Below are positions 30,402 through 63,678 of a stretch of 64,000 bases of DNA, piece after piece. Under the pieces are notes generated by a model, which was given only the letters and a program-made list of their open reading frames with translations, was not told where the DNA came from and made no database searches. Numbering within the stretch: position 1 is the stretch's first letter; each line of letters opens with the position of its first letter. A program made the position numbers and the translations under genes. Source of the DNA: a virus (Duplodnaviria > Caudoviricetes); the IMG/VR virus record IMGVR_UViG_3300008954_000001; one strand, given 5' to 3'.

Positions 30402-30835
30402 TATTCCCCCCGATTTATGTGGACCTTCTTCGCCGCCACCCTCTTTTGATGTCGATACGCCACTTTTTGAGCAGAAACGGAGACTCCTTTTGAGAAGCCT
30501 TGAGTGGCATGAACCGCCTCATCGACATGGGTGCGATCTGGGATCGGAATCCGCCCACGCAAGAAATCTTGCCCCATCTTCGACAGGGCATAGCTGGTCT
30601 TGTCGAGAATACGCTCCAACGAAGCTATCCGGTTGGGCAGCCCCTCCAGAACATCTCCAAGATACTGATACAATAGTTCGTCGTGCTCGGATGAATTCGC
30701 CAGCTTCACCAAACGGTCCACAAGATGACGGATTCGGTGGGCCTCCACACGGGACTCACCCACACCACACGTCAATAGTGCCCACGCTGCTTGGCTACTT
30801 GCTGTTTTTTCTGACACGCCATTCTCCCTTGGCAC
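30401..30835 (-). CDS. Hypothetical helical protein
   Basis: 144 aa, coupled to the next gene. Carries KTA and KVAYRH motifs shared with head-module proteins. Confidence 0.75.
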   Translation of the reverse strand: MPRENGVSEKTASSQAAWALLTCGVGESRVEAHRIRHLVDRLVKLANSSEHDELLYQYLGDVLEGLPNRIASLERILDKTSYALSKMGQDFLRGRIPIPDRTHVDEAVHATQGFSKGVSVSAQKVAYRHQKRVAAKKVHINRGE

Positions 30836-43559: not shown

Positions 43560-43569
43560 GATAACCTCC

Positions 43570-47020: not shown

Positions 47021-47524
47021 CTATTCGCCCCCGTGCATGTGAATGTCCAAGTTCTTGATCAAGAACATGCAATTAGGACATGCGTATAGGTGCTCACTGG
47101 CACCTTCCCTACGCTTATAGATTGCTTTCTTCAAGCCACCCTCTTTGCATCGAGGACACCCGTAAACGCCCGAATCACACTCACTTTTCGTAGCGTGATA
47201 CTGGCGATCTTTGGTTTTCCAATACAAAGCAACCCTCTCTGGAGAGGCTGCGGCTTTTTTGGCGGGAACAGTACCTGCTCCGCCAGGAACAGAGTTGGTC
47301 TTCGGAGGTGCGAGCCAGATATCAGGGTTAGTCCGTTGCAGATCCTCAACAGGATACCGTGTGGCACCCCACGCAGTCTGCACATCAGCCATACCAATAG
47401 CGGGGTAGAGAGCCACAATGGTCCCTACGACATCCAAGCCATGTCCGAAAGGGACTACATAATCCCCTACGGCAAACTCAGTAGCCCGCTCTTGATAATG
47501 GGTTTGTCCGCTGGCCTGCTTCAC
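47021..47524 (-). CDS. Hypothetical head-module protein (SH3-like N-terminus, C-terminal zinc ribbon)
   Basis: FAVGDYVV...GTIVALYP...; CPRC...CPNC. SD AGGAG. Confidence 0.75.
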   Translation of the reverse strand: MKQASGQTHYQERATEFAVGDYVVPFGHGLDVVGTIVALYPAIGMADVQTAWGATRYPVEDLQRTNPDIWLAPPKTNSVPGGAGTVPAKKAAASPERVALYWKTKDRQYHATKSECDSGVYGCPRCKEGGLKKAIYKRREGASEHLYACPNCMFLIKNLDIHMHGGE

Positions 47525-47532
47525 GGGAACTC

Positions 47533-48114
47533 CTAAAGGGCATAACCGTGAGCGAAAGAGGCTTCCTTGCCACCTTCATCAGCGTCCTCATCATCCCCAT
47601 CGTCGCCTTCGTCAGCGTCTTCGTCGCCTTCGTCAGCGTCTTCGTCGTCACCAGCCAATCGGAGGAGGCTATTAGCAAGGTTGACCAAAGTTGCCTTCTT
47701 GTCGGCATCTTCTTCTTCCTCGTCATCAGCGTCCTTCTCGTCCTCATCCTCATCGGATGCCTTCAAGAGTTCAGCGACTTTTGCGGCGATCTCCTTTAGG
47801 GCTGCTTTGCCAAGACCACCACTCTCGACCATATTTCCAAGCTCATAAAGCTCATCCTGATGGGTCTTAGTGGCCATATAAGGCTCATCCGACTCGTGCT
47901 GAGTATCCACTTCCTGATTGAATTCCTTCTGAATGGAGTCAGACTCCTCATTGGAACGCTTCTCAACGAAGTCGGAAAGCAGATCGCATCGGTATGCGAA
48001 GTCCTTCGCAACATTGGTTGGAATACCAAGTGCTTTGTGGTCTGCCTCAAAGAGTTGGGCCAGACGGTCCAGATCGGCGGTAATAGCTTGTGCGGCTTCT
48101 TTTGTTAGGGCCAT
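47533..48114 (-). CDS. Acidic head-module protein (second scaffold-like or internal protein)
   Basis: SD AGGAGG. DADEG repeats ending GGKEA, as in 44391..45602. Confidence 0.75.
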   Translation of the reverse strand: MALTKEAAQAITADLDRLAQLFEADHKALGIPTNVAKDFAYRCDLLSDFVEKRSNEESDSIQKEFNQEVDTQHESDEPYMATKTHQDELYELGNMVESGGLGKAALKEIAAKVAELLKASDEDEDEKDADDEEEEDADKKATLVNLANSLLRLAGDDEDADEGDEDADEGDDGDDEDADEGGKEASFAHGYAL

Positions 48115-48223
48115 GATGTATCCTCCTAAAAATTAGTTGTTCCCTAAAGGTCTACGCAGGAGAATACCCCTGCGAAAGATGGCTCACCTTTCACATGGGT
48201 AGCCCTCAATAAAAGGGCGGTGA

Positions 48224-48239
48224 TATAGGAAAGCCATTG
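48224..48239 (-). promoter_or_regulatory. Conserved intergenic motif copy (CAATG-gctt-TCCTAT-A)
   Basis: In the spacer upstream of the scaffold/protease unit, followed by a leader hairpin at 48155-48174. Confidence 0.45.
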
Positions 48240-48249
48240 AACCGAGACT

Positions 48250-51200
48250 TCATTTATTTTCTTTCCGCCTTCCCCCGAATGGAGGGGGCGGGGGCGGAAG
48301 CGTCTTTTGTGACAATGCTTCGGCGTTGCCTGTGTCGGCGTGTTCCCGAACTTTATCCGCCAAAAGAAATAGGTCATCTGACAATTTCTCTTGGTCTTGC
48401 TTTTTTTCAGCGAAAATCGAGAGGACGGTGGCGGAAATACTTTTCCGAAGTGTCCCCCCAATGTCCTCCGGTGGCTCTTCTTCGTTGAGCAAATTGTCGT
48501 GAGCCTCTTTAATCAGACCTTTACACGCCTCTAAGTATGCGAAATCGCCCCCATCTTCCTCTTGTAAGCCTATTTCAGCGAGCAGGGGGGAGTACACTGT
48601 GATGCTATCCAACGCCATTGCCATCGCCCAATCTCGTAACGTCCCTCTTTCTTCTGGGTCATGTCCCAAAGGAACTCGGCCCGCCATGATCCCGGACGGG
48701 GTGGCCGAATCGAAGAAATCTTGAAACTGCTCGTCTGGAACTTCTTCCATGACTGCAAAAAAGACCTCACGACTCTCTTGGGTATGCCACTCTTGTAATG
48801 GGGTACATAAGGCGGCGTGGCCGTCCTCTGTTTCTGCCATCTTCCGAACAAACCGTTTGGTTTCTTTACTCGGAGACACCCCACCGGGGGATTCATGTCC
48901 TTTAAGGATCGCCGCTAAATGGTGACCCTCAATTCTGGCTTCAATCTCAGCGACTCGCTTTGACCTCTCAGGTAAAGTATCGGCCTCTGCTTCTAACGCC
49001 ATTACAAGCACTTGGCGGTCGTCCCCAGAATACTTCCGAGAATCTTCTATGGTTGAGGAAACCTGAGCGAAGCGAGCATCTTTTGTGAGTTCTGACTTAT
49101 CTTTAGGGTCTGAAAGGTCTTTAGCTGGGTTAAAGTAGGTTTTCTTGGCATATTCCGCACGGGCAAGGGCCTCCCCTATAAAAGCTGCGGGGGAACCCTC
49201 ATCCTCAAAAAACCTCTCTGCCGCATACTCCCCACTCAAAGCTGCCCGTGCATCGATGAGCTTCATAGGGTTTTGCTTCAACCCTTCGGTTTCAGCTTCA
49301 AAAGCGGCCTCGAAAGCTCCAAAGTCAAACGCTTCCGACAAGATTGCGTTTTCCTCCAACGCCTCCACCAAGTCTGGTAGCAAAGCCTCTAATCGAGAAG
49401 CCAACTCTTCACGAGACGCTAATTCTTCCTCAACGTGTTGTTTGTTTTTGACCCTTTGGGTTTCAATGACCTGTTCAGGAAATGTTTGTAAGAGGTCTAA
49501 ACCCTCTTCGGTAGACGGGTCTAAAGACACCTCATCTTTTGTTCCGTCCACATGATCAACCGTGATTGTGTATTTCCCATCAACGGGACCGGACACAGAC
49601 ACATCTGGCCTTGGAAAGTCTGTTTCGGGGTCATCAAACGCCTCTAAATCCAAAAGCCCTTTAAGCCCTTCTGGGATCGACTCTTCCGAATCGACCTTAG
49701 CTACCTCTGGCCCGTCCCCGATTTCTTCTTCTCCACCCCCGCCTTCATCGTCATCTTCTCCGGGGTCTTCGGCCAACCATGCTTCGGCTTCTTCTCGTGT
49801 TGAAAAGTGTTCGGTCTTATCCCCTTTAGTGGCTTTGAAGCCTTCGTCATCCCCCAACTCTTCAATCCCGTCAGCAGTCAGCCACCGTTGAGCAATTCGC
49901 TTATAGTTCATGCTCAAATCGTCATCGCCTTCAGCCCCAAGATCCTCAACGTCCGAATCTTCCGCATCCACACGCTCTTTTCGTAAGTCTTTGCGTGGGG
50001 GCTTCTTCTTCGGAGAGGGTCGCACAAGGCGGCCCGCTTCTTCGTCTTCTTTCTCAGCGAGAGTTTTTGTCGCTACCCTATGAAAGCGAACGGCGTTGAC
50101 CGCAGCGGATTCGTTGGTGAAGCGTTTAGGGGTGTTTGAATCTCCGGGGGAAGCCCACCACTCCTTACCGATTTGCCAAACAAATCCTTGGGGGATCATT
50201 CCTCCAATGTCATGAGAGCCTTTCGTAACGTCAGCAACGCCCCAATCGTGGACAGCCTTCACCGTTGTCGCTCTCGACAAGAGGTTCATCAACCATCGTT
50301 TCAAACCACCCATTTTCAGTGTTTCTTCATGAGGACACGGATACGAGCGATCTACAACACGCTCTATATTAGCCTGTCGATAAACACCTAAAAGAGCAGT
50401 GGGGTCGAGTTCCTTCCGAATTGAGCGAAGGGCTTGCGCTATCCATTGGGGGTCGGACTCCTCCAACCATGCCCGCTGAAGCAATCGAATACGATCCGCC
50501 ATCTGCGATAAATCTGTTTGGTTTGTTTCCCAAACCTCGTTGATTTTATCGAGCGTAACGGCCTCTTCTAAAAAGCCTTCGATAGTCAAAAAATGCTTCG
50601 CTATACAATCTGGACAGCGTTTGCGGGGATGAAAGAGGTGATCCTCCAATAAAACGCATTGTTTGACCACTTCTCGAAGGTTGAACCACGGCGACATAAT
50701 CGGAAGCAAACTGGCTAACCGCAACTTGTCTACTGAACGGCGAATCTCACTTTTCAACTGATTTGGGGATTTCAAAAGCTCCGGGTTCTCTAAAAGAACC
50801 AAGCGAGAAAGCTCCTGTACTCTTGGGAAAAAAGACTTCAAATCCTTTTTCTCAATGCCCTTCTCTTTCGCCAACATTGGCATGAAGCTCTTATCTTTGA
50901 TGGCATTACCGGGATTCTTCAAAGCCGAAACAAGATGGTCTTGCTCCTCACGGGTCATCTCAAACGCAATATCAGCAACCCGCTTACGGCCCGCCGCATC
51001 AAGAAATCCGAGATCGTGGCGAACGGGCAGGCCGAGGTCGGTCAACGTAAAGAAAAACTGAACTGGCAATTTCGCAGCCCTCCCTTTCATGGTGGCGGCA
51101 AACATCTTGTCCTTTTGAAGCATCACCTTCAGCGGCTCAATCAACCCCAAACGGTCAAGTTGGGCCAATGTTTGTTTCCACGTATTCTCTTCCAATAGCT

Positions 51201-52026
51201 TGAATAACTCCTGGGCCACACGAGAGGGGCTTACTTTCAGGAGGGCCATCCGCTTACGGCGGATTGAAGCTACGGTATCTGGTGGTATCTTCAGGCCATA
51301 TTTGACCAAGAACTTGATTGCTCGAAGCATTCGAGTCGGGTCATCTTGAAAAGTCGTGTCAGGGTCAAGGGGGCAACGTGCTTCACCTGCCTTCAAATCC
51401 TCCAAGCCGCAACCCGTCATATCAATGATCTCGGCTTTATCTGGACCCTTCGCTAAATCCGATAGCCGCCACATCAACGTGTTGAAGGTGAAGTCCCTCC
51501 GCATGATATCTTCTTTGATCCCAGACCATTCAACAGAGGGTTTGTACCCCCCGCCGGAATCGTCCGAATAAGTCTCTGACCGAGCGTTAACGATCTCAAT
51601 GGCAGCATCGCCCTCGGCACTAAACTCACTGAGGTCCACACCGTCCACAACCCACGAACTTTTCACTACAATCTTGGCAACTCCGTAGTTGTCCGTGATC
51701 AACTCCGTAGAGGCTGGAATCATGCGCTCTAACCGCTTGGCGAGCCAAGCCGAGTCTTTACCCAAGTGTTTTGAGTCTATGACCATATCCACATCTTTAA
51801 TGGGTTGGTCGATTACGAAGTTTCGGACAGCCCCGCCCACCACATACACATGCTTTCCCACATCAGGACCAAGACGGCCCACAGCCTCTGCCATCCACCG
51901 CATTAGAGCGGTCGAGTGTTGGCTGGACACAGATTTCTTGTGGAAGGCTGAGACAACCCTTTGAACTGTGTCTTTATGTTGTGTGGTAAGGGTCACAAAA
52001 GCATCCTTCATCGGTCGGTAATACAC
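48250..52026 (-). CDS. Multidomain protein: N-terminal class II nucleotidyltransferase (CCA-adding enzyme) plus Cys/His domain plus long acidic region
   Basis: VYVVGGAVRN...KDVDMV, ARSETY...P.V, EDIMRRDFTFN, DDPTRMLRAIKF motifs in the first ~430 aa. About 820 aa of extra sequence follows. Confidence 0.88.
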   Translation of the reverse strand: MYYRPMKDAFVTLTTQHKDTVQRVVSAFHKKSVSSQHSTALMRWMAEAVGRLGPDVGKHVYVVGGAVRNFVIDQPIKDVDMVIDSKHLGKDSAWLAKRLERMIPASTELITDNYGVAKIVVKSSWVVDGVDLSEFSAEGDAAIEIVNARSETYSDDSGGGYKPSVEWSGIKEDIMRRDFTFNTLMWRLSDLAKGPDKAEIIDMTGCGLEDLKAGEARCPLDPDTTFQDDPTRMLRAIKFLVKYGLKIPPDTVASIRRKRMALLKVSPSRVAQELFKLLEENTWKQTLAQLDRLGLIEPLKVMLQKDKMFAATMKGRAAKLPVQFFFTLTDLGLPVRHDLGFLDAAGRKRVADIAFEMTREEQDHLVSALKNPGNAIKDKSFMPMLAKEKGIEKKDLKSFFPRVQELSRLVLLENPELLKSPNQLKSEIRRSVDKLRLASLLPIMSPWFNLREVVKQCVLLEDHLFHPRKRCPDCIAKHFLTIEGFLEEAVTLDKINEVWETNQTDLSQMADRIRLLQRAWLEESDPQWIAQALRSIRKELDPTALLGVYRQANIERVVDRSYPCPHEETLKMGGLKRWLMNLLSRATTVKAVHDWGVADVTKGSHDIGGMIPQGFVWQIGKEWWASPGDSNTPKRFTNESAAVNAVRFHRVATKTLAEKEDEEAGRLVRPSPKKKPPRKDLRKERVDAEDSDVEDLGAEGDDDLSMNYKRIAQRWLTADGIEELGDDEGFKATKGDKTEHFSTREEAEAWLAEDPGEDDDEGGGGEEEIGDGPEVAKVDSEESIPEGLKGLLDLEAFDDPETDFPRPDVSVSGPVDGKYTITVDHVDGTKDEVSLDPSTEEGLDLLQTFPEQVIETQRVKNKQHVEEELASREELASRLEALLPDLVEALEENAILSEAFDFGAFEAAFEAETEGLKQNPMKLIDARAALSGEYAAERFFEDEGSPAAFIGEALARAEYAKKTYFNPAKDLSDPKDKSELTKDARFAQVSSTIEDSRKYSGDDRQVLVMALEAEADTLPERSKRVAEIEARIEGHHLAAILKGHESPGGVSPSKETKRFVRKMAETEDGHAALCTPLQEWHTQESREVFFAVMEEVPDEQFQDFFDSATPSGIMAGRVPLGHDPEERGTLRDWAMAMALDSITVYSPLLAEIGLQEEDGGDFAYLEACKGLIKEAHDNLLNEEEPPEDIGGTLRKSISATVLSIFAEKKQDQEKLSDDLFLLADKVREHADTGNAEALSQKTLPPPPPPFGGRRKENK

Positions 52027-52041
52027 CTACCGTTGAAAGAT

Positions 52042-52057
52042 GATAGGCAGACTATGG
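52042..52057 (-). promoter_or_regulatory. Conserved intergenic motif copy (CCATA-gtct-GCCTAT-C)
   Basis: In the short spacer between portal and the CCA polyprotein. Confidence 0.5.
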
Positions 52058-52069
52058 AGGACACCTGTA

Positions 52070-53761
52070 TTAGAAGCGGCTACCGCCATCGTCCTTCTTC
52101 TCGTACTCCAAGCCCATGCTCTCAGCGACCTTCTGAGCCACATCAGAGCTTTCGGCCAAAGCCCGACCAACCTCACTGTACACTGACCGCATAACCTCAT
52201 TGAAAGAGGAGTCGTTCAAAGTGAATAGATCCCGTTGTAGTTTGAGCTTGGTTGTCTCTGGGTCGATATTTAGCAACTCCAAGATAATGTCGATATCGAG
52301 ACTTCCCTTTTGATAAAGGTTGAACAAGGCATCGAAAGTATCTGAGTTGTCCCGCAAGGCCAATCGAGTGAACGAGAGTTTAGGGTAAATCACATTCTCC
52401 AACCCGTCCTCATCCGTCTCAACGAACCCCATGCGAGCACACATCGGCTTGAAAACGTACTCTTCAATGAAATCTTGGAGGAGTTCCCGAAGCAACATAT
52501 AGCGAGTGTTGATCACCTCAAGGTTGATCCTATCCCCCGAATACGAAGACTCACCTGAAAGCAAAGACTCCGTTACCCCAAGGCCCGCATATAGCTGGCG
52601 GTCAGTCAGGTCATACTCAGTGGTCAAATCCAACAGGCGTTGATCCGCCCCCATTTCTTCCCAACGAATCTCGAAGTTGGCGATGATTGAGTAGTCGGGG
52701 TCTTGTAGAGATAGGTCCACCTGATCCCGTAACTCCTCAACATCCTGAATATCCATACCTTCGGCATAAATCACTCGAATGGGGGTCATGTGGCGGCTGG
52801 CGATAGAAGTCTGAGCCTGTCGGAGCTTGTCCCTAAACACCAATGTTCGGATACAGCGTTCGAGGATCGAGTGTCCACGGGCCTCGTATTGGCTCTTTTT
52901 GCGGGACATGTAGTAAACGAACGACCCCGCTTCGGGGTCTGTGTTCAAGGAAATGTTCTGGCCGCCTCGAATTGAATTGACCACATCGGAGGGCATCGAA
53001 TCCACAACACGCTTGGCGTTGGAGTCGCCCATATCCGCTTGGTTGATCAGATCCTTGGTCTTCGAGTCAGGGATAAGCTCAACAATCCTTTCATCCGTAA
53101 AAGGAAACGCTTCCATGTGGACTTGTTCGGGAGGCAATATACGAATGGCAGTCCAACCATTGTAGTTCTCCTTTAGCCAAGTAACGGCTCGATCATCTGC
53201 GTCTGGTCGCTCGTGCCATTGGACATCCACCTCTTGAGTCTCGTCATTCAAAACACGGACTTCTTCTTGTCGAATATCTTGGGGCATGTCCGGGGAGGTG
53301 TCTTCAACAAAGATAAACACCTCTCCAATCAAATGATAGTCATGGACAATCTCAATCAGCCGATGCAGCAGCCCCGTGCTCTTTGACCATTTCTGGCAAA
53401 AGGCCAACGCTTTCTCCGCTAATTGGTGATCTTCCGCTTTCGGGATATTCAACCGAAGTTTGCTCAGGGGAAGCTCTGTGTGTAGGTCAATCGCTTGACC
53501 TACAAAAGGGTCGGCCCGATAAAAGAAGCGATAGTAGTTACGCTGTTCATCAAGACTTTGAGGAAGCTCCAAGAAGTCTGTCGAAAGCTCAGGGCTATAA
53601 AAGTTGCCCCCCGCCCCAGTCATGCTTCCACCCACTTGTGGGAAAGAAGCCATCTTGATCCCGCCCGTTGCGATTTTTCTCGGCTTCCCTGTCGTGACTT
53701 TCGCACGATTTGGAACCTTGGCTACCTCTTTGCCTTCTTGTTCCTCGATCTTTCTACTCAT
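52070..53761 (-). CDS. Portal protein
   Basis: 563 aa downstream of TerL. Portal-like pattern (FFYRADPFVGQAIDLHTELP...DYHLIGEVFI...GHSILERCIR...YAGLGVTESLL...YMLLRELLQDFIEEYVFKP). Confidence 0.85.
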   Translation of the reverse strand: MSRKIEEQEGKEVAKVPNRAKVTTGKPRKIATGGIKMASFPQVGGSMTGAGGNFYSPELSTDFLELPQSLDEQRNYYRFFYRADPFVGQAIDLHTELPLSKLRLNIPKAEDHQLAEKALAFCQKWSKSTGLLHRLIEIVHDYHLIGEVFIFVEDTSPDMPQDIRQEEVRVLNDETQEVDVQWHERPDADDRAVTWLKENYNGWTAIRILPPEQVHMEAFPFTDERIVELIPDSKTKDLINQADMGDSNAKRVVDSMPSDVVNSIRGGQNISLNTDPEAGSFVYYMSRKKSQYEARGHSILERCIRTLVFRDKLRQAQTSIASRHMTPIRVIYAEGMDIQDVEELRDQVDLSLQDPDYSIIANFEIRWEEMGADQRLLDLTTEYDLTDRQLYAGLGVTESLLSGESSYSGDRINLEVINTRYMLLRELLQDFIEEYVFKPMCARMGFVETDEDGLENVIYPKLSFTRLALRDNSDTFDALFNLYQKGSLDIDIILELLNIDPETTKLKLQRDLFTLNDSSFNEVMRSVYSEVGRALAESSDVAQKVAESMGLEYEKKDDGGSRF

Positions 53762-54054
53762 GCTTCACGTCCCTTAGTGGCCCGATCAACAACCCTGTCT
53801 TGCAAGTCGGGATCGTCCAAATCATAATTAGGGGCCATTGGCCGAGCAGAGGACAGGGCATTTAACGCATTTTTAAGGTGGCGATGAATGTCTTTCAACC
53901 TACGCTTTTGTTGGCCCGAAGCCGTCTTTGACGCTTGGGAATATACTCCCAAGGCTTGACGAAGGGAATTCTCGGCACTGGCCATATGACCAAGTGCCTC
54001 TCGATCCACATCATTCTTTGCAAGTCTGGCTCGAAGTTTTCCCATGTTCCACAA
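53758..54054 (-). CDS. Hypothetical helical protein
   Basis: 98 aa with ATGA overlap to portal. Confidence 0.65.
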   Translation of the reverse strand: MWNMGKLRARLAKNDVDREALGHMASAENSLRQALGVYSQASKTASGQQKRRLKDIHRHLKNALNALSSARPMAPNYDLDDPDLQDRVVDRATKGREA

Positions 54055-54063
54055 TACCCTCGG

Positions 54064-54387
54064 CTACCCACGACCTTTTCGAGGTTCATCCGACTTAAAC
54101 CCTGACCGTGTAATATGCCCTGTCTTGTAAGCCGTTTTCACAACTTTCTTCAAGAGAGTAATATGGGGAACACTACCTGAAAAGAGCCTTCTCCAAGAAC
54201 CACCAGCCCGCTTAAACACCCGTATGATCTCATCATACTCGGCCCCAATATGCACGGCATCAGGACCATACTTATCGATGAAATCTTTGATAAGACGGTA
54301 ATCAGCCCGTACAGGATCAGTGGGGTCTTTGTTGGGCATCTTATCTCCTCTTCTTCCCAGGCACTTGCCGAGACTCGTGTGAGCCAC
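54064..54387 (-). CDS. Hypothetical protein
   Basis: Operon-packed ORF. Probable start MPNKD at about 54339 after GGAG. Confidence 0.65.
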   Translation of the reverse strand: MAHTSLGKCLGRRGDKMPNKDPTDPVRADYRLIKDFIDKYGPDAVHIGAEYDEIIRVFKRAGGSWRRLFSGSVPHITLLKKVVKTAYKTGHITRSGFKSDEPRKGRG

Positions 54388-56161
54388 CTCGCATAGCCTT
54401 GAGTCGGGCCTTCCTTCTGTGCCTTGTTATAGAAGCCTCATTGTTGTTAACGCCCCCTCGATGGCCCACCATGTACTTCTGGTTCCCCAAATGCTGTGAG
54501 GCAAGCCAGATCATTCGGCAAAGAGCATCCGCCATATCATCGTGTTTCCCTTCTGTATTGGGGGCCTCCACCGTAGTCACAAACTTTGAGTGGTAGTGGG
54601 CTTGAAGCTCTAAAAGCTCCTTTATGTATGCACAGTGCTGTTCGCCTTCGGGGATCGGGTGGTCGTATAGCTCCAACCTTTTATCGAAAAGCATATCTTT
54701 GAAGTTCTTGAACATTTCACTGGTTTTAGGTTTCGTCATCGCCTCGGAACGGAGCTTCCTCAAACCTCGCTTGATAAGGGCCTGCTCCAAAGGAATCCCC
54801 GCCCATTGATCAAAAAGACCCTCCGAGAAGTAAAACTTCTTACTCAACGCAAGAATCCAATCGGCCACGTCATCGAACTCAAGACGATCTTTATCGGCGT
54901 ACTGCCCCTCACCCGCTTTAATGCTGTCCACCAAATCCACCACAATCTTATTGTTTGTGTCTATGTGTCCAATAGCAATAGCGGTGCCGTCACCTACAAG
55001 GCCAAGGTCGATCCCGACAAAATGGGGGGCCTTTGATTTGGCCCCTGTGCGAGCTTTACGGTCTGGGATCACGCAATCCATAAGATCAGACTCCCGCTCA
55101 ATCCAACCTTTTGTTCGGTCAGTGAAAACACCGCCGTACTCCGTAAAGAATACGTTCGGGTCTTTGATGTAGTGCTTTTCAAACTCTGTGGCGGGAACCG
55201 TTGGGTTCACTTCCCATGTAGGGGCCTGAACACACAGCATGTTTTCCGCAGCCTTCCCACCCCTCATTCCAATTTGGAACAGTTTGTAGAACTGGCCTTG
55301 GCGACCTAAAGGGGAGGAAATCAAAATGATACGGCCCTCTACAGGGCCGATTGGAATCCGAGAATCGGTCGGGTCTTTGGGCGAGAACGCTGAAGTAGAG
55401 GGTGTTACGGCGTTATAGACCGCTTCGGCCCCGGACTGCCCCTTGTCTGTGAAGTGGGCAACCTCATCAAGAATCACCACCAAGTTACCTGCACCACGCA
55501 AACCTTTGGCTACGCAGGAGCGAAAAGTTACCTTAAGGGTAGCTTTTGCATTGGGGTCATCCGCATAAGTCCCATACCTCTTGATATCGTCTGGAGTCTG
55601 AAACCTCGCATAAGACATCGTATTGTTTGCCGTATAGGGATGGAAAAACGCCGTGTTGCGAAAATGGCCTGACACCTCTTGATATAAAAGGCCCGCCTGA
55701 TCCTTATCTGTAGCAACCGAAATGATCTGAATGTTATTAGATGCGGGCAATCCGTAATACTGTTGAGGGTTCTCTTTCTTAATCAGCCTGTATGTCTCAT
55801 AAGCAGCAATACAGGATGAGAGAAGGGTCTTTCCAGAACGGCGACCAATACTCAGGATCATCTCTCGTCGCTCATGCCCCGGCACCACCTCCCGAATGTT
55901 GCATCGGCCCTCATCATACAACCACTCAAGATATGTTTTCTCGGTGTAGTCCTTGAAGTCTTCTCTGCGCCAATCGGAAATCTTGAATGTGGTTGTATCG
56001 TCCAATTCAAGCCCATAGTGGATCTTGAGAATGATCCGCTGAATGGGAAACAGCTTCATTTTCAAGCCCCAAGAGGACTCTACAAACTCAATGATGTTTG
56101 CGTCTTTCTGTAAAGAAGCGTCTACTTTTCCAGCAGATTTAGCGATATCTGAAAGGGCCAC
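54341..56161 (-). CDS. terL: Terminase large subunit
   Basis: Walker A GRRSGKT, Walker B VVILDEVAH, coupling motif ILISSP, RNase H-like VGIDLG...D, C-terminal HDDMADAL. Confidence 0.95.
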   Translation of the reverse strand: MALSDIAKSAGKVDASLQKDANIIEFVESSWGLKMKLFPIQRIILKIHYGLELDDTTTFKISDWRREDFKDYTEKTYLEWLYDEGRCNIREVVPGHERREMILSIGRRSGKTLLSSCIAAYETYRLIKKENPQQYYGLPASNNIQIISVATDKDQAGLLYQEVSGHFRNTAFFHPYTANNTMSYARFQTPDDIKRYGTYADDPNAKATLKVTFRSCVAKGLRGAGNLVVILDEVAHFTDKGQSGAEAVYNAVTPSTSAFSPKDPTDSRIPIGPVEGRIILISSPLGRQGQFYKLFQIGMRGGKAAENMLCVQAPTWEVNPTVPATEFEKHYIKDPNVFFTEYGGVFTDRTKGWIERESDLMDCVIPDRKARTGAKSKAPHFVGIDLGLVGDGTAIAIGHIDTNNKIVVDLVDSIKAGEGQYADKDRLEFDDVADWILALSKKFYFSEGLFDQWAGIPLEQALIKRGLRKLRSEAMTKPKTSEMFKNFKDMLFDKRLELYDHPIPEGEQHCAYIKELLELQAHYHSKFVTTVEAPNTEGKHDDMADALCRMIWLASQHLGNQKYMVGHRGGVNNNEASITRHRRKARLKAMRGGSHESRQVPGKKRR

Positions 56162-56162
56162 C

Positions 56163-56843: not shown

Positions 56844-56857
56844 TCCCTCTCCACAGG

Positions 56858-57325
56858 TTAGAAGTCTGGCCCCGTAATAGCCGGGGAGCCTTCAGACATT
56901 ACCCCTGTGGTGGGATCAAGCGTGAGGTTTTCTGTGTAATCGACCAACTCCAAGGTAATATCTTGGGGGCCGTTTGGACCACTAATGGTCACATCAGCAT
57001 CTACCGCCACTGCGCTGAACCCTGCGATACCGTCATTAAGGGTAGCTCCAATCGCATCAGCGATATTTGAAGCGGTATCGTTCACATTACCGGCAATCTC
57101 CCAATGAGTGCCTTCAACCAGTTCAATGTCCCCTAATGTAATTCGGGAACCTTTTGATGAAATGGCGTTCGTTGCGATTACCGTAAGGGTAGCTTCACAG
57201 GCGGTGGGGTTTCCGGTCAAATTTGCATTGATAACCTTCCCCCCACCGAGATCAATGTGTTGATAGGTCACTGTCCCCAATGCGGGGGAGATAATTTCAA
57301 AGCGACCTTTTGTTTTGCGTGTCAT
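56858..57325 (-). CDS. Hypothetical virion structural protein
   Basis: Beta-rich, TASNIADAI...AVDADVTISG pattern like sheath-associated domains. Confidence 0.6.
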   Translation of the reverse strand: MTRKTKGRFEIISPALGTVTYQHIDLGGGKVINANLTGNPTACEATLTVIATNAISSKGSRITLGDIELVEGTHWEIAGNVNDTASNIADAIGATLNDGIAGFSAVAVDADVTISGPNGPQDITLELVDYTENLTLDPTTGVMSEGSPAITGPDF

Positions 57326-57921
57326 TCGATGTCTCCTATGGGTTCACCCACCAGACTAAAATCGTAGGGCGGTTTTTCAATTCCTGGGCGGCCTTCGGAG
57401 TCTGTCATTCGTTGTTGTAACAGGTAAATAAAGACCTCATGTTGATTTGCTAATGTCATTAGATAATCATCCATACCAAGAGACAGGCTATCCATGCCTT
57501 TTAGTAGGTCATAGGCAGTGCGAATCGTGACTTGTAGGTCTTCTTCCCCCGCCAAAGCTCTCAAAAGCGGGCAATCCACTTCTTTGAACCTTGAGATATG
57601 TGCTTGCGCTTTATCCATTTGGGAGAAAGGGCTGACCGAATCGGGGCCAAATAGCCCAACACACTTTTCGGCAAGCTGGTCAATCTCTCCCGTCATCTGG
57701 TTATACATGCGCTCAAACAACTGGTGATCCCCATAGCTGGATTGGCCTTTTGCTGACCAATGCGCTGACCAGTGCATCCACCGCAACCCTCGAAGCGTTG
57801 CGAGAGTTACCGTAAGAATAGTCTGTGCTGCATGAACGTGCGTAGGGACACCTACCAAATAGGCTTTCTTTAGGTGTCGTGACGCAACTCTGGCAGCAAG
57901 TCTACTCATCATCTTCCCCAA
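57322..57921 (-). CDS. Dps/ferritin-like protein
   Basis: H-x-x-x-HW...G...DHQLFERMY...EIDQLAE ferroxidase-centre pattern, C-terminal HEVFIYLL helix. Confidence 0.85.
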   Translation of the reverse strand: MGKMMSRLAARVASRHLKKAYLVGVPTHVHAAQTILTVTLATLRGLRWMHWSAHWSAKGQSSYGDHQLFERMYNQMTGEIDQLAEKCVGLFGPDSVSPFSQMDKAQAHISRFKEVDCPLLRALAGEEDLQVTIRTAYDLLKGMDSLSLGMDDYLMTLANQHEVFIYLLQQRMTDSEGRPGIEKPPYDFSLVGEPIGDIE

Positions 57922-60139
57922 GGCTCATCCCACCAAAGAACACCCCCGCCAACTCTTCGTGTTCGGGAGTGTCGTTGAAATCGAACCCTGTCATGGAATC
58001 GTTCGACAGTTGAAACTCGGATGGGTCGTAGCCCGAAAACAAAGAAGCCGTGATTTCTGCATCACTGGCTCTGGCAAGCCGAAGAGCCTCTGCTTGATAC
58101 TTCTTCGGGTTCTCAACCGGAGCTTCCTCTACCAGAATCTTATTGTACTTCTGACAAACAGAAAGCCCGTCAGGGAGTTTGTTTGCGAACTTACAAGTCC
58201 CACATCGAGGCATACACAAAGCGAACTTCAAGCCGTTCGTTCTGTGCCTGTCTGCGCCCCTGTCACAGCCTTTGGTTCCTTCGGGAGTGGCGTAGGCTTC
58301 GGTGTCTACATAAACTTGCCCTGAAAGGCCCTCGTGGGCCTCACGAATCTGAATAAGCTCATGACCAGCCGCCTCTACCAAACGCTTTGAAAAGCGAGCG
58401 GAAAGAAGGTCGTCGAAATCCTTGCCCAACACGCCCTCAGACATCTGAATCCGAGACCACTTAACGAGCTTCCGAACATCTACGCTACTGGTTTTGGTGG
58501 TTCGACTCTCTGGGATCGCCTCTGTGTAAATGGCTTCCGAATACTCTCGAACAGGTGTAGCGGTAATCTCGCCACGCTTCGAGTTGTTCAAAGCCACCAC
58601 CGCAGATGCAGCGTGTACTAACTCGCCCGCATTACGCTTGGACTTGAGTAGCCTATCCGCTTGTCGTTGTGTGATTTGAGCCTTATCCGCCAAAGCCTGA
58701 ACATGCTCTTTGGCCTGATCCAACTTGCTTTTCTTCAAGTCAGCCGTGACCTTCTTGGCCCACTCATGCTTGAGCTTACGAGCCTGACCTACATCCTTCG
58801 TATGGATGCCACTCGGCTTGTAGTCTTTACCCGCTGTCGGAAAGGCCGCTGCGGTAGCAAAGCGAAGCATCTCTTTAGGACTCGCCCCACTATTGATGAT
58901 CTCTTTAGCGGCCTTTTTCGTCAGTGAACCATTCCGCACCAACTCAAGGACATGCTTCTGAGCACGGGTCTTCAACACCGTGTCCAGCGTATCGCCCGTA
59001 ATCTTAGCTTGCGCTTGCTTCTTAGAAGCCGAGAACTTCTCTTTTGCCTCGGCCATACTGACCGACTCTACGGGCGTTTTGTGTGTCGTAAAGGCTTCTC
59101 TGCGCCTCGGCTTCCTCGTAGGCTTCGTAGTAAAGGCGGTTTTAAGGGCTGTGCGAGGGTCCGAACCAGCGACCTTGATGCCCAAGGCTTTGAGTCGTGG
59201 GGCATAAACCCTCAACGCTTCCTTCCAAGGAATATCAAGAACAACTCGCTTACCGAGGTAGTTCTCAAAAGCGGCCATCTTCGTGTTTGGCTCTGCCAAA
59301 ATATAGGCGGCGGAGGCACACTTCGTCTTAATGAGAGAGTCCCATTTTCCGTTGTGCATCCCAGGAAAGGCTGACGCTCGAATAAACACGTTTCCAGCTA
59401 AACCGTGCTCCTCTGAAATCAGGCCAGCCAAAAGCCGTGCCGTGGTGTCGGGAGTTTCAAGCTCTTCGGCGGCTTCTTTCAGCAACGCCTCCATCGAATA
59501 ACCACAAGCGGATCGCCGCATAGCTTTTTGCATGGCGGCTTTTACATTGTCGTAGCCTGGAAGCCCTGATGTTTGGCCGGGATCACGAACTTCAGCTTGA
59601 TACCGCTCAACCTCTTTGTTCCGATTAGGAATCAGTTCCAACCCGTTTGTTCGAGTCTCTACCCACGCTTGTTGGAGAGCAGCCTGAGCCTTATCCACAG
59701 GATTGACAGGAAGCCTGTCTTCATCTTGTTCGAGCGAGGGATCAAGCCAATCGAGATTGGCGAGGGAGGATTTCTTCCCAAGCTGCGAGTTCTCTTCCTC
59801 TGAAAGAACAGCACCAGAAGCCAGCAGTCCCCAAGGATCGCCCATATGTTTATGGAGGGGGCCGCTGCGCTGCTTCACTTGGACGGCTGGCCCTGTGTAG
59901 TTGCTGGGGGCGGAAGGGGGTCCAGCTTCAGCATCTTTTTCATCGGGGCTTTCGGGAAGGATGCCTTCAGGAAGCTCGGCCATGCCGTAGGCTTCAGGTA
60001 ACACGGCCCCGTCTTCAACGCCGTCTCCGTAATCCATATCAAAATCAAAGCCGTCTAAGCCGTAATTGAAACCGGAAGTTGGGACATGGCCGCCATCGGG
60101 GAGATGAGACTCGCTCTGCTTCGCTTTTTTCTTACTCAT
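57902..60139 (-). CDS. Large hypothetical head-module protein with internal duplications and Cys-rich C-terminal domain
   Basis: 745 aa. HGLAGNVFI/HEGLSGQVYV duplication; C...CxxxCxxC...C. Confidence 0.8.
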   Translation of the reverse strand: MSKKKAKQSESHLPDGGHVPTSGFNYGLDGFDFDMDYGDGVEDGAVLPEAYGMAELPEGILPESPDEKDAEAGPPSAPSNYTGPAVQVKQRSGPLHKHMGDPWGLLASGAVLSEEENSQLGKKSSLANLDWLDPSLEQDEDRLPVNPVDKAQAALQQAWVETRTNGLELIPNRNKEVERYQAEVRDPGQTSGLPGYDNVKAAMQKAMRRSACGYSMEALLKEAAEELETPDTTARLLAGLISEEHGLAGNVFIRASAFPGMHNGKWDSLIKTKCASAAYILAEPNTKMAAFENYLGKRVVLDIPWKEALRVYAPRLKALGIKVAGSDPRTALKTAFTTKPTRKPRRREAFTTHKTPVESVSMAEAKEKFSASKKQAQAKITGDTLDTVLKTRAQKHVLELVRNGSLTKKAAKEIINSGASPKEMLRFATAAAFPTAGKDYKPSGIHTKDVGQARKLKHEWAKKVTADLKKSKLDQAKEHVQALADKAQITQRQADRLLKSKRNAGELVHAASAVVALNNSKRGEITATPVREYSEAIYTEAIPESRTTKTSSVDVRKLVKWSRIQMSEGVLGKDFDDLLSARFSKRLVEAAGHELIQIREAHEGLSGQVYVDTEAYATPEGTKGCDRGADRHRTNGLKFALCMPRCGTCKFANKLPDGLSVCQKYNKILVEEAPVENPKKYQAEALRLARASDAEITASLFSGYDPSEFQLSNDSMTGFDFNDTPEHEELAGVFFGGMSLGEDDE

Positions 60140-60762
60140 TTGGTTCTCCCATTAGTTCGGCCAAGGACTCGATTGATGGCGGCGGTTTTCCTGTGGGCTT
60201 GCCTACCTGAAAATTGATCTTCAACAACCTCATCGGCGGCGGCCTCTGGATTCTCTTTGATCTCCTCCACATCTTCCATGATGTCTTTGACCTCATCCCT
60301 CTGTCGATCCACGGTAGGGTTATCCATAGACCAATGGGGAGCATTGATTTCGTCGTACAAGGTGTCCGTAAGGGAAGAAAGGGCTTCGGAGCAGTTCATA
60401 AACTGCCGTCGCATCGCACGGATTTCTTGAATATAGCCCTTACCGCCAAGATTGCCGTCTGGTGAGATCAAGGCTGATTTGAGTTTCGCAAACTCATGAT
60501 AAGAGCTTTGTGTGTGGCCCAAGGCCATAAGACATGAACGAAGGCATTTCGCCAAAGGCTTTAGTCGAGCGGGTGAAAACTCAAACTCAACATTCAAATC
60601 TCGCTCGGACGGCCCTGTATCGGCGTAGGCCCAGTTTTTCTCATCTGAACCACGGTCCTTGATGAAACGAACTTCACCCGCTGTCTTGGACATAGCGGCT
60701 GTTTTTGAGCGCAGATACCGTGTCACTACACGACTCGCCATCCTATTGCGTTTATCGGCCAT
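60136..60762 (-). CDS. Hypothetical head-module protein
   Basis: 208 aa, SD GGAGG. N-terminal RVVTRYL..KTA motif. Confidence 0.8.
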   Translation of the reverse strand: MADKRNRMASRVVTRYLRSKTAAMSKTAGEVRFIKDRGSDEKNWAYADTGPSERDLNVEFEFSPARLKPLAKCLRSCLMALGHTQSSYHEFAKLKSALISPDGNLGGKGYIQEIRAMRRQFMNCSEALSSLTDTLYDEINAPHWSMDNPTVDRQRDEVKDIMEDVEEIKENPEAAADEVVEDQFSGRQAHRKTAAINRVLGRTNGRTK

Positions 60763-60794
60763 ACGGCAAACCTCCGTTTCTACAATCGACTATA

Positions 60795-60810
60795 GATAGG
60801 GACTTTACCG
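60795..60810 (-). promoter_or_regulatory. Conserved intergenic motif copy (CGGTA-aagt-CCCTAT-C)
   Basis: About 33 nt upstream of the 60762 start; near-identical to the 30862 copy. Confidence 0.6.
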
Positions 60811-60830
60811 TTGGACGGGCAGGGCCAGAT

Positions 60831-61373
60831 TTATGTTTGAAGCGGACCATCAGATTCCTCGAACAGACGTTCAATGACCCAAGCATCACCGTCTTGCTGG
60901 AGGGACCACATATCGTCCGTAGATTTATGAACAAGCTCGCCCTCAACTTGGTTGCCAGCAACCAATAAGAACTCACTAAGATCCCCAAGGCTGGCGACTC
61001 GCATCTTATCTACTCGAAGATGCCGCCGATCCACGGGCATTACATCATGGTTACCGTCCCACCGTACAAAAACCATCTCATCATGGCTGGTCTTATTACC
61101 AAGCGACGTATGAACTCGGACAACCGTGCCAATCGTGCCTGCTTCGGGAGGGTCGGGGTATGAAAGAACAGAGCCGACATTCACGATGAAGGCGACCCGT
61201 GTACCTTCCGCTACGGGAAGAGGGATCGCATGGGCCGCACGGCCCTTGTCGGTCAAGGCTTGCATGGAGGACGTTCGAGCGTCACCAAGCTGTTTACCCT
61301 TCAAATGAGAGTCGATAGCCTCGTTTACTCTGGCAACATAGTTACCTGTCAGTTCGTCCCAAAATTCGCTCAT
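60831..61373 (-). CDS. Hypothetical protein with SH3-like barrel
   Basis: GTRVAF...GTVVRV...VFVRWDG pattern. SD GGAGG. Confidence 0.75.
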   Translation of the reverse strand: MSEFWDELTGNYVARVNEAIDSHLKGKQLGDARTSSMQALTDKGRAAHAIPLPVAEGTRVAFIVNVGSVLSYPDPPEAGTIGTVVRVHTSLGNKTSHDEMVFVRWDGNHDVMPVDRRHLRVDKMRVASLGDLSEFLLVAGNQVEGELVHKSTDDMWSLQQDGDAWVIERLFEESDGPLQT

Positions 61374-61388
61374 TTTCTGCCTCCAAAA

Positions 61389-61742
61389 TCACTCATGGAA
61401 ATCCACACCAATCTTTCTCTGATGAGCATCCCAACGATCCATCATCTTCAAAAGATCCCGCTGGAAAGCCGCAAGCACCCCATGGACCGCCTTCCTCATT
61501 GATTTGGGATAGCCCGTGTTACCCGTAATCGAGTACAAAATGGCCTCATGCAGTCCTGTCCCATCATAGTAACGAGACTTTTTCATCAAATCGTCCAAAG
61601 GGTTGTCTACAAGTTGTTCAAGCCCCTTGGCCCACTCGTCTGTGTCATACGCCTCTGACCCCTTCTTCACTAATGGAAGAAGGTCTTTCCGCAATTCTGG
61701 ATGCTCATAAGCCAGCTTAATGATCTGATTTCTTAAGCTCAT
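61389..61742 (-). CDS. Hypothetical protein
   Basis: ATGA overlap at 61739-61742 gives the start MSLRNQIIKLAYEHPELRKDLLPLV. Confidence 0.7.
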   Translation of the reverse strand: MSLRNQIIKLAYEHPELRKDLLPLVKKGSEAYDTDEWAKGLEQLVDNPLDDLMKKSRYYDGTGLHEAILYSITGNTGYPKSMRKAVHGVLAAFQRDLLKMMDRWDAHQRKIGVDFHE

Positions 61743-62917
61743 AGTGTGCTCCGTACAACTGACCAGCCCACCGTACCCGTTTGAACCCCATCGAAAGTGA
61801 TTGTAAAGCCTTCGCTTGTCTTCGCTCCAATGGCGGGTGCGGCGTTCATAGAACACTCAGTACAAACGAAGTATTGATTATCAGGTTGGGAGACAGCAAA
61901 GGTCACGGTTTCAGCAGCACTCGCAGCAAAGGCGATTTCTCCTGTGGAACCACTCTCTGAAAGCGTCCCGTCACCCGCCAGATCCCCGTGAGACGATCCC
62001 ACGGAAACAGCAGTTACGGTGTTGTTCAGGGTCAAATCCCCAATCATGCAGCCGATTACCCGTGCCGACCTATCTCCACCAATAGTTACATCCCCAACAT
62101 TCGGGCATCCGGCAATAACGACAGAATTCCCACCAGTTAGGTTGATCAGAACATCTCCCACTTCACCACATTCCTCAATACGGTGGCTGGTGGCCGCAAT
62201 ATCGGACACCGCCGAAGCGGTCGTATAAGCAATCTGAATGTCAGAAAGTCGCTGGATGCCTTTGAGAAGGACACTGGCACACTGGTCAATCTCAATCAAA
62301 GTCGTTGCCACAGGGTTCCAATCGCCCCCCACCGCTACAATGTTGCCCACAGTGGAAGCTCGCAAAGGCCGAGAACCTACTCCCGACGCTTGCAGTTCAC
62401 AGTTTTGAATACGAATACGGTCCTCTCCGATTGTCGATCCCGCCCCGCCGATTACTCGAACGCACGAGGAAGAGTCCTCAGATGACTGAACTCGTAGATC
62501 CACCAAATCTAAAGTTTTGGGGGTGGTGGAAACACCAGCCTGGATGGTGAACGTGTCGCCCGCTGCTGCGGAAACTACAGGTCTACCGATCCCAACAACG
62601 CTGATCCCATCCTTATCAATAGTGATGTTTTCGCTGTAAGTTCCAGAGGTTACAAGGATTGTGTGGGGATTTGTTGCGCTGGAAGTGGCCGAAACCGCAT
62701 CCACAGCGTCTTGAATTGTGCTGTATTGAGCATTGTCCCCAACCACCAAGACAGTCGCATTGGCGGTAACTCCCGCAAGGCGGGCCAGCCCGATCCCGTC
62801 CGTAACCTTCGCATCGACAAACTCAAGGTCGCCATCGGTTGAACGAGAAATCGTCAGGGTGTCGCCACTGGAAGCCTCTATTTGGATTGCGTCTAACTGG
62901 ATTGGGTCTTGCGCCAT
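61739..62917 (-). CDS. Virion protein with pectin-lyase-like beta-helix and small C-terminal beta domain
   Basis: YSTIQDAVDA...TILVTSGTYSENITI (pectinesterase-like N-cap) followed by beta-helix-like repeats. C-terminal VTF...Y.V...KT.EGFTI. Confidence 0.7.
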   Translation of the reverse strand: MAQDPIQLDAIQIEASSGDTLTISRSTDGDLEFVDAKVTDGIGLARLAGVTANATVLVVGDNAQYSTIQDAVDAVSATSSATNPHTILVTSGTYSENITIDKDGISVVGIGRPVVSAAAGDTFTIQAGVSTTPKTLDLVDLRVQSSEDSSSCVRVIGGAGSTIGEDRIRIQNCELQASGVGSRPLRASTVGNIVAVGGDWNPVATTLIEIDQCASVLLKGIQRLSDIQIAYTTASAVSDIAATSHRIEECGEVGDVLINLTGGNSVVIAGCPNVGDVTIGGDRSARVIGCMIGDLTLNNTVTAVSVGSSHGDLAGDGTLSESGSTGEIAFAASAAETVTFAVSQPDNQYFVCTECSMNAAPAIGAKTSEGFTITFDGVQTGTVGWSVVRSTL

Positions 62918-62928
62918 GATCTCAACTC

Positions 62929-63357
62929 CTACACGAACACGTCATAGCCAACGGAACCTGTGAAGGTTGCGCCAAGCTCGACAGTGAAGCCCGTAATGGT
63001 CTTGTTTGTGACCCGGATAGGGACAAACTCGCCAACCGAAACATGGACTCGATAGGTTGCGGCGTTTAGGGCCGATGAAAAGACAACATCTTTAGATGCC
63101 TCAGTGTCGAATTCAAGCGTCCCGCTTACAGATGAAGATGCCATAAGATCCTCCAACTCAGCCATGGCGGTCTGAATGTCGTCCGTCACTTCTTGTGGAA
63201 GCTCGATGTAAGCGTCAGCAATCGACCCTTGGGGCGTAATAATATTACGGACGGAAACGACCCCTGAAATGTCTTGAACAACAGTGAATGTGTACTCCTC
63301 ACTTAAAGCCGTGATGGAGCGATACGTGGATTCTGTTTTGTACCTTGTCAGAGCCAT
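62929..63357 (-). CDS. Small virion protein with a gp53/H-lectin-like C-terminal domain
   Basis: VVFSSAL...TYRV...VTNKTITGFTV, homologous to the C-terminus of 61739..62917. Confidence 0.65.
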   Translation of the reverse strand: MALTRYKTESTYRSITALSEEYTFTVVQDISGVVSVRNIITPQGSIADAYIELPQEVTDDIQTAMAELEDLMASSSVSGTLEFDTEASKDVVFSSALNAATYRVHVSVGEFVPIRVTNKTITGFTVELGATFTGSVGYDVFV

Positions 63358-63678
63358 CTACCAGATCCCCGTAGTCAGATACCCTCGGTCGGTGAGCCAC
63401 TTATCGAGCTTCACCAATTCGGAATGATTGGAGGACCAGATCGTAAGGGAACCAGCGTTTTCTTCTTTACCCATACCAAGGTCAGTTATCGGCTCGATCC
63501 CTCGGATACGGGCCTTCCCATCCCTGAAAGATCGCAGCAGATTGTTGATGTTCTTGATGGGCTTAGATGACCCTGCTTCATATACCGTCACACGGTATTC
63601 AGGCGTAGCATGGCTCTGTAGCCATCGCTCGGCTACCTCCTTGGCCATTACTACCCGTTTTTTGCAGGGCTTACTCAT
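63358..63678 (-). CDS. Hypothetical protein
   Basis: 106 aa, SD AAGGAGG. N-terminal EVAERWL motif. Confidence 0.75.
   Translation of the reverse strand: MSKPCKKRVVMAKEVAERWLQSHATPEYRVTVYEAGSSKPIKNINNLLRSFRDGKARIRGIEPITDLGMGKEENAGSLTIWSSNHSELVKLDKWLTDRGYLTTGIW

Follow-up and report, generated by a model that had tools for sequence, protein, structure and literature searches.

In phage T4, the internal proteins IPI-III and Alt carry a capsid-targeting sequence (CTS) that is removed by the prohead protease gp21, and encapsulins load ferritin-like and other cargo into an HK97-fold shell through short peptides. The herpesvirus scaffold ends in a C-tail with an A↓S maturation site, and the scaffold of Staphylococcus phage 80alpha and SaPI1 CpmB have one tail in common. 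In the jumbo phages phiKZ and SPN3US, head propeptides are cut at S/A/G-x-E (PMC5694885, PMC10052503). Virion-delivered polyvalent proteins are a further case: such domains, encoded beside packaging genes, are argued to travel with the DNA, and T4 Alt, an ADP-ribosyltransferase (ART), is packaged into the head and loaded by a targeting peptide (PMC5512222). Here we describe a short motif, R-V-A-x-R-Y-L (hereafter the tag), on otherwise unrelated proteins encoded in a 64,000-nucleotide (nt) stretch of the viral record IMGVR_UViG_3300008954_000001 (hereafter the window), whose source is an uncultured jumbo phage and nearly all of which is made up of minus-strand genes. The motif is real, conserved in the lineage, modular, terminally biased and predicted to be helical, and its most probable role is to address or dock head-associated cargo. 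We found no description of it in the papers searched.

The tag resembles the T4 CTS as a short peptide that is found on unrelated proteins, more often near the N-terminus; in a relative an ADP-ribosyltransferase carries it, a head protease gene lies nearby, and cleavage between tag and body is possible. Unlike the CTS, it is not followed by an L/I-x-E site, occurs also at C-termini and inside polyproteins, is unrelated in sequence and belongs to another phage lineage; packaging and removal, established for T4, are predictions for the tag. As in encapsulins, a short terminal peptide (N or C) sits on a ferritin-superfamily Dps-fold protein and on unrelated enzymes, and an HK97-type capsid protein forms the container. 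The encapsulin peptides, in contrast, are rich in Gly, Ser and Leu, and the container here is a DNA-filled tailed-phage head with a scaffold and a protease, where binding to the capsid protein is conjectural. With the herpesvirus and 80alpha scaffold tails the tag shares a terminal amphipathic helix, a small-residue site ([KR]-T-A-[S/G]) before the body, and the use of one handle by several proteins of one head. Here, however, the scaffold-like protein has a tail of its own, the tag is carried by a helical 208-amino-acid (aa) protein and by enzymes, and cleavage is suggested only by the recurrence of a motif.

The large multi-module proteins encoded beside the portal and terminase genes recall the polyvalent and MuF effectors of Iyer et al. 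(2017; PMC5512222), with the same modules (ART-PolyVal, 2H phosphoesterase, RNA-repair HAD, nucleotidyltransferase) in mosaic arrangement between relatives; the enzyme types and their post-portal position match those given there for virion-delivered polyvalent proteins. They depart from that description in having a recurring tag, which is also found on small single-domain proteins, and no MuF domain by Pfam in the polyprotein of the window. The phiKZ and SPN3US propeptides likewise come from jumbo phages that have a prohead protease of their own and many proteins that may be internal to the head, but they are long, have no single shared motif, follow another cleavage rule and are backed by mass spectrometry, whereas our case is sequence-based. 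We take the tag to be akin to capsid-targeting or processing peptides. What sets it apart is how widely it occurs in huge phages and that it is found at both kinds of terminus as well as between modules.

Definition and statistics of the motif

The full consensus is A-x-R-V-A-x-R-[Y/H/F/W]-L-x-[R/K]-[R/K], about ten residues that are basic, amphipathic and predicted to form a helix. Its core, [VI][AV]xR[HYW]L, occurs five times in the 20,748 aa encoded in the window, against a mean of 0.076 and a maximum of 1 in 500 per-protein shuffles. Since the codons for Arg, Val/Ile and Leu vary from copy to copy among these five, conservation and selection act at the protein level, and a DNA-level repeat was ruled out on the same ground. 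The Tat signal (S-R-R-x-F-L-K) was also rejected: the tag contains only one Arg and does not match its spacing, and a hydrophobic region is missing from most tagged proteins.

Further instances were scored with a 13-column position-specific scoring matrix (PSSM), derived from 111 distinct instances in homologues of the 208-aa protein with the window copy excluded, at a threshold of at least 10 bits. Positions that the selecting pattern had left free were also kept (Arg at -1 in 88/111, Ala at -3 in 49/111). In the window, seven matches were obtained against one on reversed sequences. The motif proposed in a preliminary description of this DNA is thus distinguishable from both shuffled and reversed sequence, and every string quoted there lies where it was said to lie. 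Related loci are named below by an L and a number, and a set of them was drawn from IMG/VR using the portal and terminase; 12 non-redundant loci gave 32 matches against three on reversed sequences. A genome-wide scan of LR745208.1, an unannotated metagenomic phage genome (complete, 485 kb), returned 24 matches on 22 proteins, against five reversed and 2.0 shuffled. The more distant Tunturi_5 and L022 have zero matches, and the tag was not found in 150 homologues of the major capsid protein (MCP; 41,410 aa, two weak PSSM matches only) or, as RVAxRYL, in the head protease or scaffold-like protein.

Over all sets, 20 of 63 matches lie within 30 residues of the N-terminus (11.9% expected, p=2.7e-5). 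All window matches fall in 27.8-64 kb (p=0.02) and none in 1-27.8 kb, the tail, fibre and accessory part, in agreement with the preliminary description, which had not noticed the motif in accessory, fibre and sheath proteins. The part of LR745208.1 that is syntenic to window 26.7-64 kb holds six matches, at a 3.6-fold higher density (p=0.013). The instances in the window are as follows.

57862..57891, minus strand: RVASRHLKKA, residues 11-20 of the Dps-like protein (gene 57322-57921), core at residue 12; 23.5 bits
60697..60732, minus strand: RVVTRYLRSKTA, residues 11-22 of the 208-aa core protein (gene 60136-60762), core at residue 12, followed by KTAGEVRF; 24.2 bits
63607..63639, minus strand: EVAERWLQSHA, residues 14-24 of a 106-aa protein (gene 63358-63678), core at residue 15; 17 bits
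49873..49899, minus strand: RIAQRWLTA, at a module junction of the 1258-aa post-portal polyprotein (gene 48250-52026; residues 710-718, core at residue 711); 10.5 bits
51931..51960, minus strand: RVVSAFHKKS, putatively decayed, before the CCA-adding module of the polyprotein; 5.8 bits
50341..50361, minus strand: RVVDRSY, putatively decayed, polyprotein residue 556; -6.5 bits
27855..27881, minus strand: NVAHRYLTG, C-terminal, residues 841-849 of the 851-aa SWIM-like protein (gene 27846-30401), core at residue 842; 11.8 bits
30446..30466, minus strand: KVAYRHQ, C-terminal in a 144-aa protein (gene 30401-30835), which has a weak second copy, RVAAKKV; 16.0 and 9.7 bits
47210..47236, minus strand: RVALYWKTK, putative remnant in a 167-aa Zn-ribbon protein (gene 47021-47524); 0.4 bits

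The tag of the 106-aa protein is kept in its orthologues from L001, L012, L015, L033, L034 and LR745208.1. KVAYRHQ, an instance listed from the start, is borne out by its score and by the LR745208.1 orthologue (LR_387673), which has a full tag, SRVAKRFL, at the same place, directly after the homologous region. Support was lacking for 'RVASR' at residue 582 of the 851-aa protein (3.5 bits), which had also been listed, and for KVVYEYK. The strings RVVSAFH, RVVDRSY and RVALYW fall below the PSSM threshold when taken alone, and we read them as probable decayed copies because each sits exactly at a full-tag site of relatives. The position of RVVSAFHKKS is that of full tags in L006 (residue 8) and L015 (residue 197), in each case about ten residues before the conserved S-x-x-L-M-[KR]-F/W with which the module starts. 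RVVDRSY comes after the module at 440-545, where L006 has RVASRWL, and in L020 this module ends the protein C-terminally in KVARRRW. Orthologues of the 167-aa Zn-ribbon protein carry a full tag directly before KKALYW (L001, 13.4 bits; L015, 16.7 bits; LR745208.1, 13.7 bits).

Tagged modules in the window and its relatives

The 1258-aa polyprotein gene is co-oriented with the portal gene and begins 43 nt after it. Pfam places PolyA_pol and its RNA-binding domain (PolyA_pol_RNAbd) at residues 60-299, a CCA-adding nucleotidyltransferase module; the scan returned only these two families, and the head-anchoring MuF (SPP1 gp7-like) domain was not found. In relatives, the post-portal slot holds HAD_SAK_1, TopoIB and 2H modules, and tags recur within the long proteins encoded there (L011, residues 8 and 568; L012, 418 and 688; L015, 197, 1039, 1090 and 1560). 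An 'NYKR[VI]A..WL' junction recurs in L015 (residue 1560), L034 (residue 217) and L001 (residue 486), with a different module following in each. The tag followed by the start of the TopoIB module stands at the N-terminus in L011 and inside the protein in L012, L015 and LR745208.1. In the last of these, the tag lies exactly between the HAD_SAK_1 and TopoIB domains of a protein whose gene follows that of the portal at a distance of about 0.4 kb, and the only gene between the two encodes a 134-aa homologue of residues 440-540 of the window polyprotein. In L012, the post-portal polyprotein and an acidic 193-aa protein form one fused protein.

LR745208.1 has an N-terminal tag on an ART-PolyVal ADP-ribosyltransferase and two tags (residues 196 and 407) on a 2H/LigT (Acb1-like) protein; a Pfam scan of 20 of its tagged proteins gave mostly no match. 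Small proteins with an N-terminal tag are present in L003, L006, L011, L012, L015 and L018, and the carriers are non-orthologous across loci. In L020, which is more AT-rich and has no canonical tags, four paralogues encoded upstream of the terminase (3705-10038, minus strand) end in [LV]-[IL]-A-D-K-F-M-x-I-I, a possible counterpart of the tag in that lineage. In the same locus, a fusion joins the 167-aa Zn-ribbon protein to an 1178-aa protein.

The Dps-like protein (199 aa) was modelled with AlphaFold2 (AF2) at a predicted local distance difference test (pLDDT) score of 88, with a short separate tag helix (residues 7-17), a linker and a four-helix bundle from residue 26. In a fold search, the top 33 PDB matches were all Dps (target-normalised template modelling score up to 0.81). 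By Pfam, homologues carry PF00210 or PF19174, while the window protein itself falls below the cut-off; on the strength of the model, its predicted fold is the Dps four-helix bundle. The public gene call (P0121) is 151 aa long and begins at residue 49, leaving out the tag. Because the N-terminal 48 residues are kept in 15 orthologues, the longer reading, starting at a TTG or at Met4/Met5, is right. A 323.5-kb contig encodes a protein identical to part of the window gene.

The close Dps-like orthologues all begin with the tag. Among distant homologues, some are untagged, P0142 has the tag joined straight to its bundle, and P0153, P0157 and P0158 have it at their very C-terminal end; the LR745208.1 orthologue, at 480 kb and far from the head genes, is untagged. 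A similar difference is seen in the SWIM-like protein, which in the window has a basic linker and the tag after its zinc finger, whereas the LR745208.1 orthologue ends just past the zinc-finger C-x-H, without linker or tag. These cases, with that of TopoIB, agree with the initial proposal of one modular, transferable tag on otherwise unrelated proteins, and its presence on a Dps-fold protein, a post-portal CCA-adding polyprotein and Zn-finger proteins was likewise upheld.

The 208-residue protein family, the head module and possible processing

Databases contain more than 740 homologues of the 208-aa protein, and the contigs that encode them reach 530 kb. Among 119 members with an invariant A-G-E-V-R-F block, 98 have an N-terminal tag, 90 a C-terminal tag and 78 both, a count that is descriptive, as the PSSM was derived from the same family. 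The N-terminal tag lies a median of 13.5 residues upstream of the A-G-E-V-R-F block, and the C-terminal copy starts 11 residues from the end; in the window protein the latter is degenerate. AF2 places the tag in a helix (residues 2-21, pLDDT about 82), followed by a conserved unstructured stretch and a long helical hairpin. A fold search with this model against PDB and BFVD gave nothing below E=0.08, and generic helical hairpins only. A complex prediction of the MCP with residues 1-30 of the protein gave no answer (score 0.00) and is not evidence either way.

Some members of the family (P0097, P0115, P0116) have a DUF5661 domain (PF18905) at the C-terminus. This domain is also fused to a Dps-like homologue (P0137) and to a post-portal HAD/2H polyprotein (L033, 18192-20780); it is another module common to this set of proteins.

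The head genes of the window are listed below.

42690..43559, minus strand: MCP; PHROG major head protein, 1e-48
44391..45602, minus strand: acidic scaffold-like protein, ending in a conserved tail that differs from the tag (LSKLW..AP..SD[LV]F); K-[TVQ]-A-[ST] directly precedes this tail
45631..47019, minus strand: head maturation protease; PHROG head maturation protease, 1e-12
47533..48114, minus strand: acidic 193-aa protein with an Asp/Glu repeat in common with the scaffold-like protein
52070..53761, minus strand: portal protein; PHROG portal, 5e-31
54341..56161, minus strand: large terminase; weak Pfam TerL_ATPase match, 66-72% identical to relatives at the syntenic position

The layout of the 208-aa family is tag, [KR]-T-A-G/S (the KTAGE block), core, [KR]-[TV]-A and tag again. 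In 49 of 86 members with a C-terminal tag, [KR][TV]A lies no more than 18 residues upstream of it. This symmetry suggests that the tags may be cut off by the head protease after docking. In the window, KTA shows a 2.5-fold enrichment (14 against 5.5), and a [KR][TV]A[SAG] motif recurs at residue 25 of the protease, as [IV]R[TV]A[SA] kept in five orthologues, and before the tail of the scaffold-like protein. By analogy with herpesvirus assemblins, such small-residue sites would fit a protease that trims internal proteins. The Asp/Glu-rich repeat of the scaffold-like and 193-aa proteins ends in D-E-G-G-K-E-A.

The MCP lies within a long open reading frame, 42690-43751 (353 aa), and every relative aligns from about residue 65, its true start. 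Judged from these alignments, the MCP is about 289 aa long and has no N-terminal propeptide. No near-identical DNA for the head region was found in the phage collection by megablast. The portal is 64.6% identical to that of LR745208.1, 39% to that of Tunturiibacter phage Tunturi_5 and 27% to that of Bacillus phage G. Its residues ~318-329 (52775-52810) hold a tag-like segment, S-I-A-S-R-H-[LM]-T-P-I-R, which is kept in all portal orthologues, scores 2-7 bits and probably belongs to the portal fold. In L006/L007 the terminase and portal (3519-6848, 7439-10807) are 1109 and 1122 aa long, and the alignment of each to its window counterpart is interrupted by some 430-520 inserted aa, probably an intein.

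A second, unrelated leader of about 28 residues, '(M)TLRSKLIRLAHENP[AE]LRPHLLPLLKEA', heads at least ten dissimilar proteins in LR745208.1 (genes at 14562, 20283, 30891, 226068, 351465, 351838, 389893, 398171, 431502 and 433231), and one of these is encoded between the capsid and scaffold genes. The leader is also present in L033 (1918-3090) and, as a diverged copy, at the start of a 117-aa protein of the window (61389-61742, minus strand), with which a homologue search returned itself and one near copy only. It has no Pfam family, and its co-clustering with the tag in LR745208.1 was not significant (p=0.14). It could be another address tag.

Proposed docking, possible cleavage and their alternatives

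The reading that we favour is a modular docking helix that recruits internal proteins and cargo into the prohead. We regard this as close to an even question, and the receptor, packaging, cleavage and ejection are steps that we infer. The hydrophobic face of the helix (V, A, the aromatic residue and L), flanked by an arginine stripe, would bind a conserved site on a prohead component. It would recruit, on the one hand, core internal proteins (the 208-aa, 106-aa and 167-aa Zn-ribbon proteins) and, on the other, swappable nucleic-acid enzymes, namely the Dps-like protein, the CCA-adding/RNA-repair polyprotein and the SWIM-like protein in the window, and TopoIB, HAD, 2H and ART proteins in relatives. 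The recruited proteins would be delivered along with the DNA, and the effector-type modules in relatives (ART-PolyVal, 2H/Acb1-like, HAD, TopoIB) fit such an injected payload. A weaker step is that the head protease might sever the tags once docking has taken place ('dock then cut'). Extended to the clade, which comprises hundreds of related huge-phage contigs of up to 530 kb, this would become a 'dock-then-cut' code, an R-V-A-x-R-Y-L helix plus a [KR]-T-A↓[S/G] site, shared by a two-ended core protein and a fast-changing counter-defence and nucleic-acid payload; this extension is tentative, conceivable more than expected.

The preliminary description had read the tag as a candidate capsid-loading signal on head-module proteins. 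The N-terminal bias, the head-region enrichment in the window and in LR745208.1 and the cargo-like partners agree with that; the genome-wide distribution in LR745208.1 speaks against a strictly head-module signal, as 18 of its 24 matches (17 of 22 tagged proteins) are scattered outside the head-syntenic region. This is one of several observations that weigh against docking in the prohead. One LR745208.1 match, which falls within the PIN domain of a PIN-PhoH protein, is probably accidental. Across all sets, 33 of 63 matches are internal, and the ten C-terminal ones show no C-terminal enrichment. The tagged 208-aa and 106-aa proteins of the window belong to the conserved core of the module and are not accessory cargo, and in L034 the Dps-like gene at this head-module position is untagged, which shows that the slot can do without the tag. 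Because the conserved tail of the scaffold-like protein is a different peptide, the tag is not a simple copy of the scaffold's handle; for the same reason, and as its conserved 'KCIRIAQALL' scores below threshold, the scaffold was rejected as a carrier. Beside the tags, no consistent cleavage motif was found outside the 208-aa family. The only database phages that share the portal are the unannotated metagenomic genome, Tunturi_5 and phage G. Lastly, the real capsid signal in this clade could be the second leader.

Four other explanations can be set against a docking tag. If the motif were itself a recognition and cleavage site of the head maturation protease (e.g. [KR]-V-A↓x-R-Y-L, in the same class as [KR]-T-A↓[SG]), which removes short propeptides and splits polyproteins with no docking role, its positions about ten residues from N-termini and at polyprotein module junctions would be typical. 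The R-V-A-[S/A] half is also like K-T-A-[S/G] in the 208-aa family, [IV]R[TV]A[SA] in the protease and K[TVQ]A[ST] in the scaffold-like protein, the related herpesvirus assemblins cut at (V/L)-x-A↓S, and the protease must act on internal proteins because the MCP has no propeptide. We nevertheless hold this to be decidedly unlikely. The strongest conservation lies on the would-be P' side (R, aromatic, L), the segment is predicted to be helical whereas protease sites are usually extended, a cut at the C-terminal copies, 11 residues from the end, would remove almost nothing, and in the 208-aa family the tag coexists with a separate KTAGE block about 13 residues away. A short linear motif for another hub (a phage replication, transcription or repair factory protein, a chaperone or a host target) would organise enzymes in the infected cell and have no capsid role. 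It would account for the spread of tagged genes across the whole of LR745208.1, for the many tagged modules that act on nucleic acids in the cytoplasm (CCA-adding, 2H, HAD, TopoIB) and for the N-terminal, C-terminal and internal placement usual for linear motifs. It is made rather unlikely by the 3.6-fold enrichment beside head genes, by tags on small, conserved head-module proteins of non-enzymatic type and by their concentration in the co-oriented gene directly downstream of the portal, and we know of no clamp, Tat, ClpX or DnaK motif that the tag resembles.

A small basic helix that tethers proteins to phage DNA, with co-packaging as a by-product, is suggested by the Arg/Lys-rich composition of the tag, by its place N- or C-terminal to the Dps core, where the DNA-binding tails of bacterial Dps proteins also sit, and by the many DNA- or RNA-directed carriers (Dps, TopoIB, SWIM, Zn-ribbon). 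The near-invariant V-A and aromatic-L, however, point to a hydrophobic protein interface, a single ten-residue helix is a poor DNA binder, and ART-PolyVal and many proteins of unknown type are tagged as well; we consider this highly improbable. There is lastly chance, or a compositional artefact of Arg/Ala-rich helices. The motif was defined after inspection of the data and some low-scoring matches, such as that in PIN-PhoH, are surely accidental, but the shuffled and reversed controls, the independent recurrence in relatives and the conservation of unconstrained flanks effectively refute it.

Hardly any huge phage has been cultured, and the majority of their genes are without an assigned function. 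Even if the receptor of the tag is not in the head, a lineage-wide linear motif on about 3% of the phage proteome would point to an unrecognised interaction hub. If it is a head address, foreign proteins could be loaded into large HK97-type capsids by means of a compact, portable tag, and the proteins carried into the next host could be listed from sequence only, with RNA-repair enzymes, a topoisomerase, ADP-ribosyltransferases, 2H/Acb1-like phosphodiesterases and the Dps-like protein as candidates. Cargo sets would then evolve through the simple gain or loss of a ten-residue tag, and if docking is indeed followed by cutting, the sequence of these phages would suffice to read off their injected proteome.

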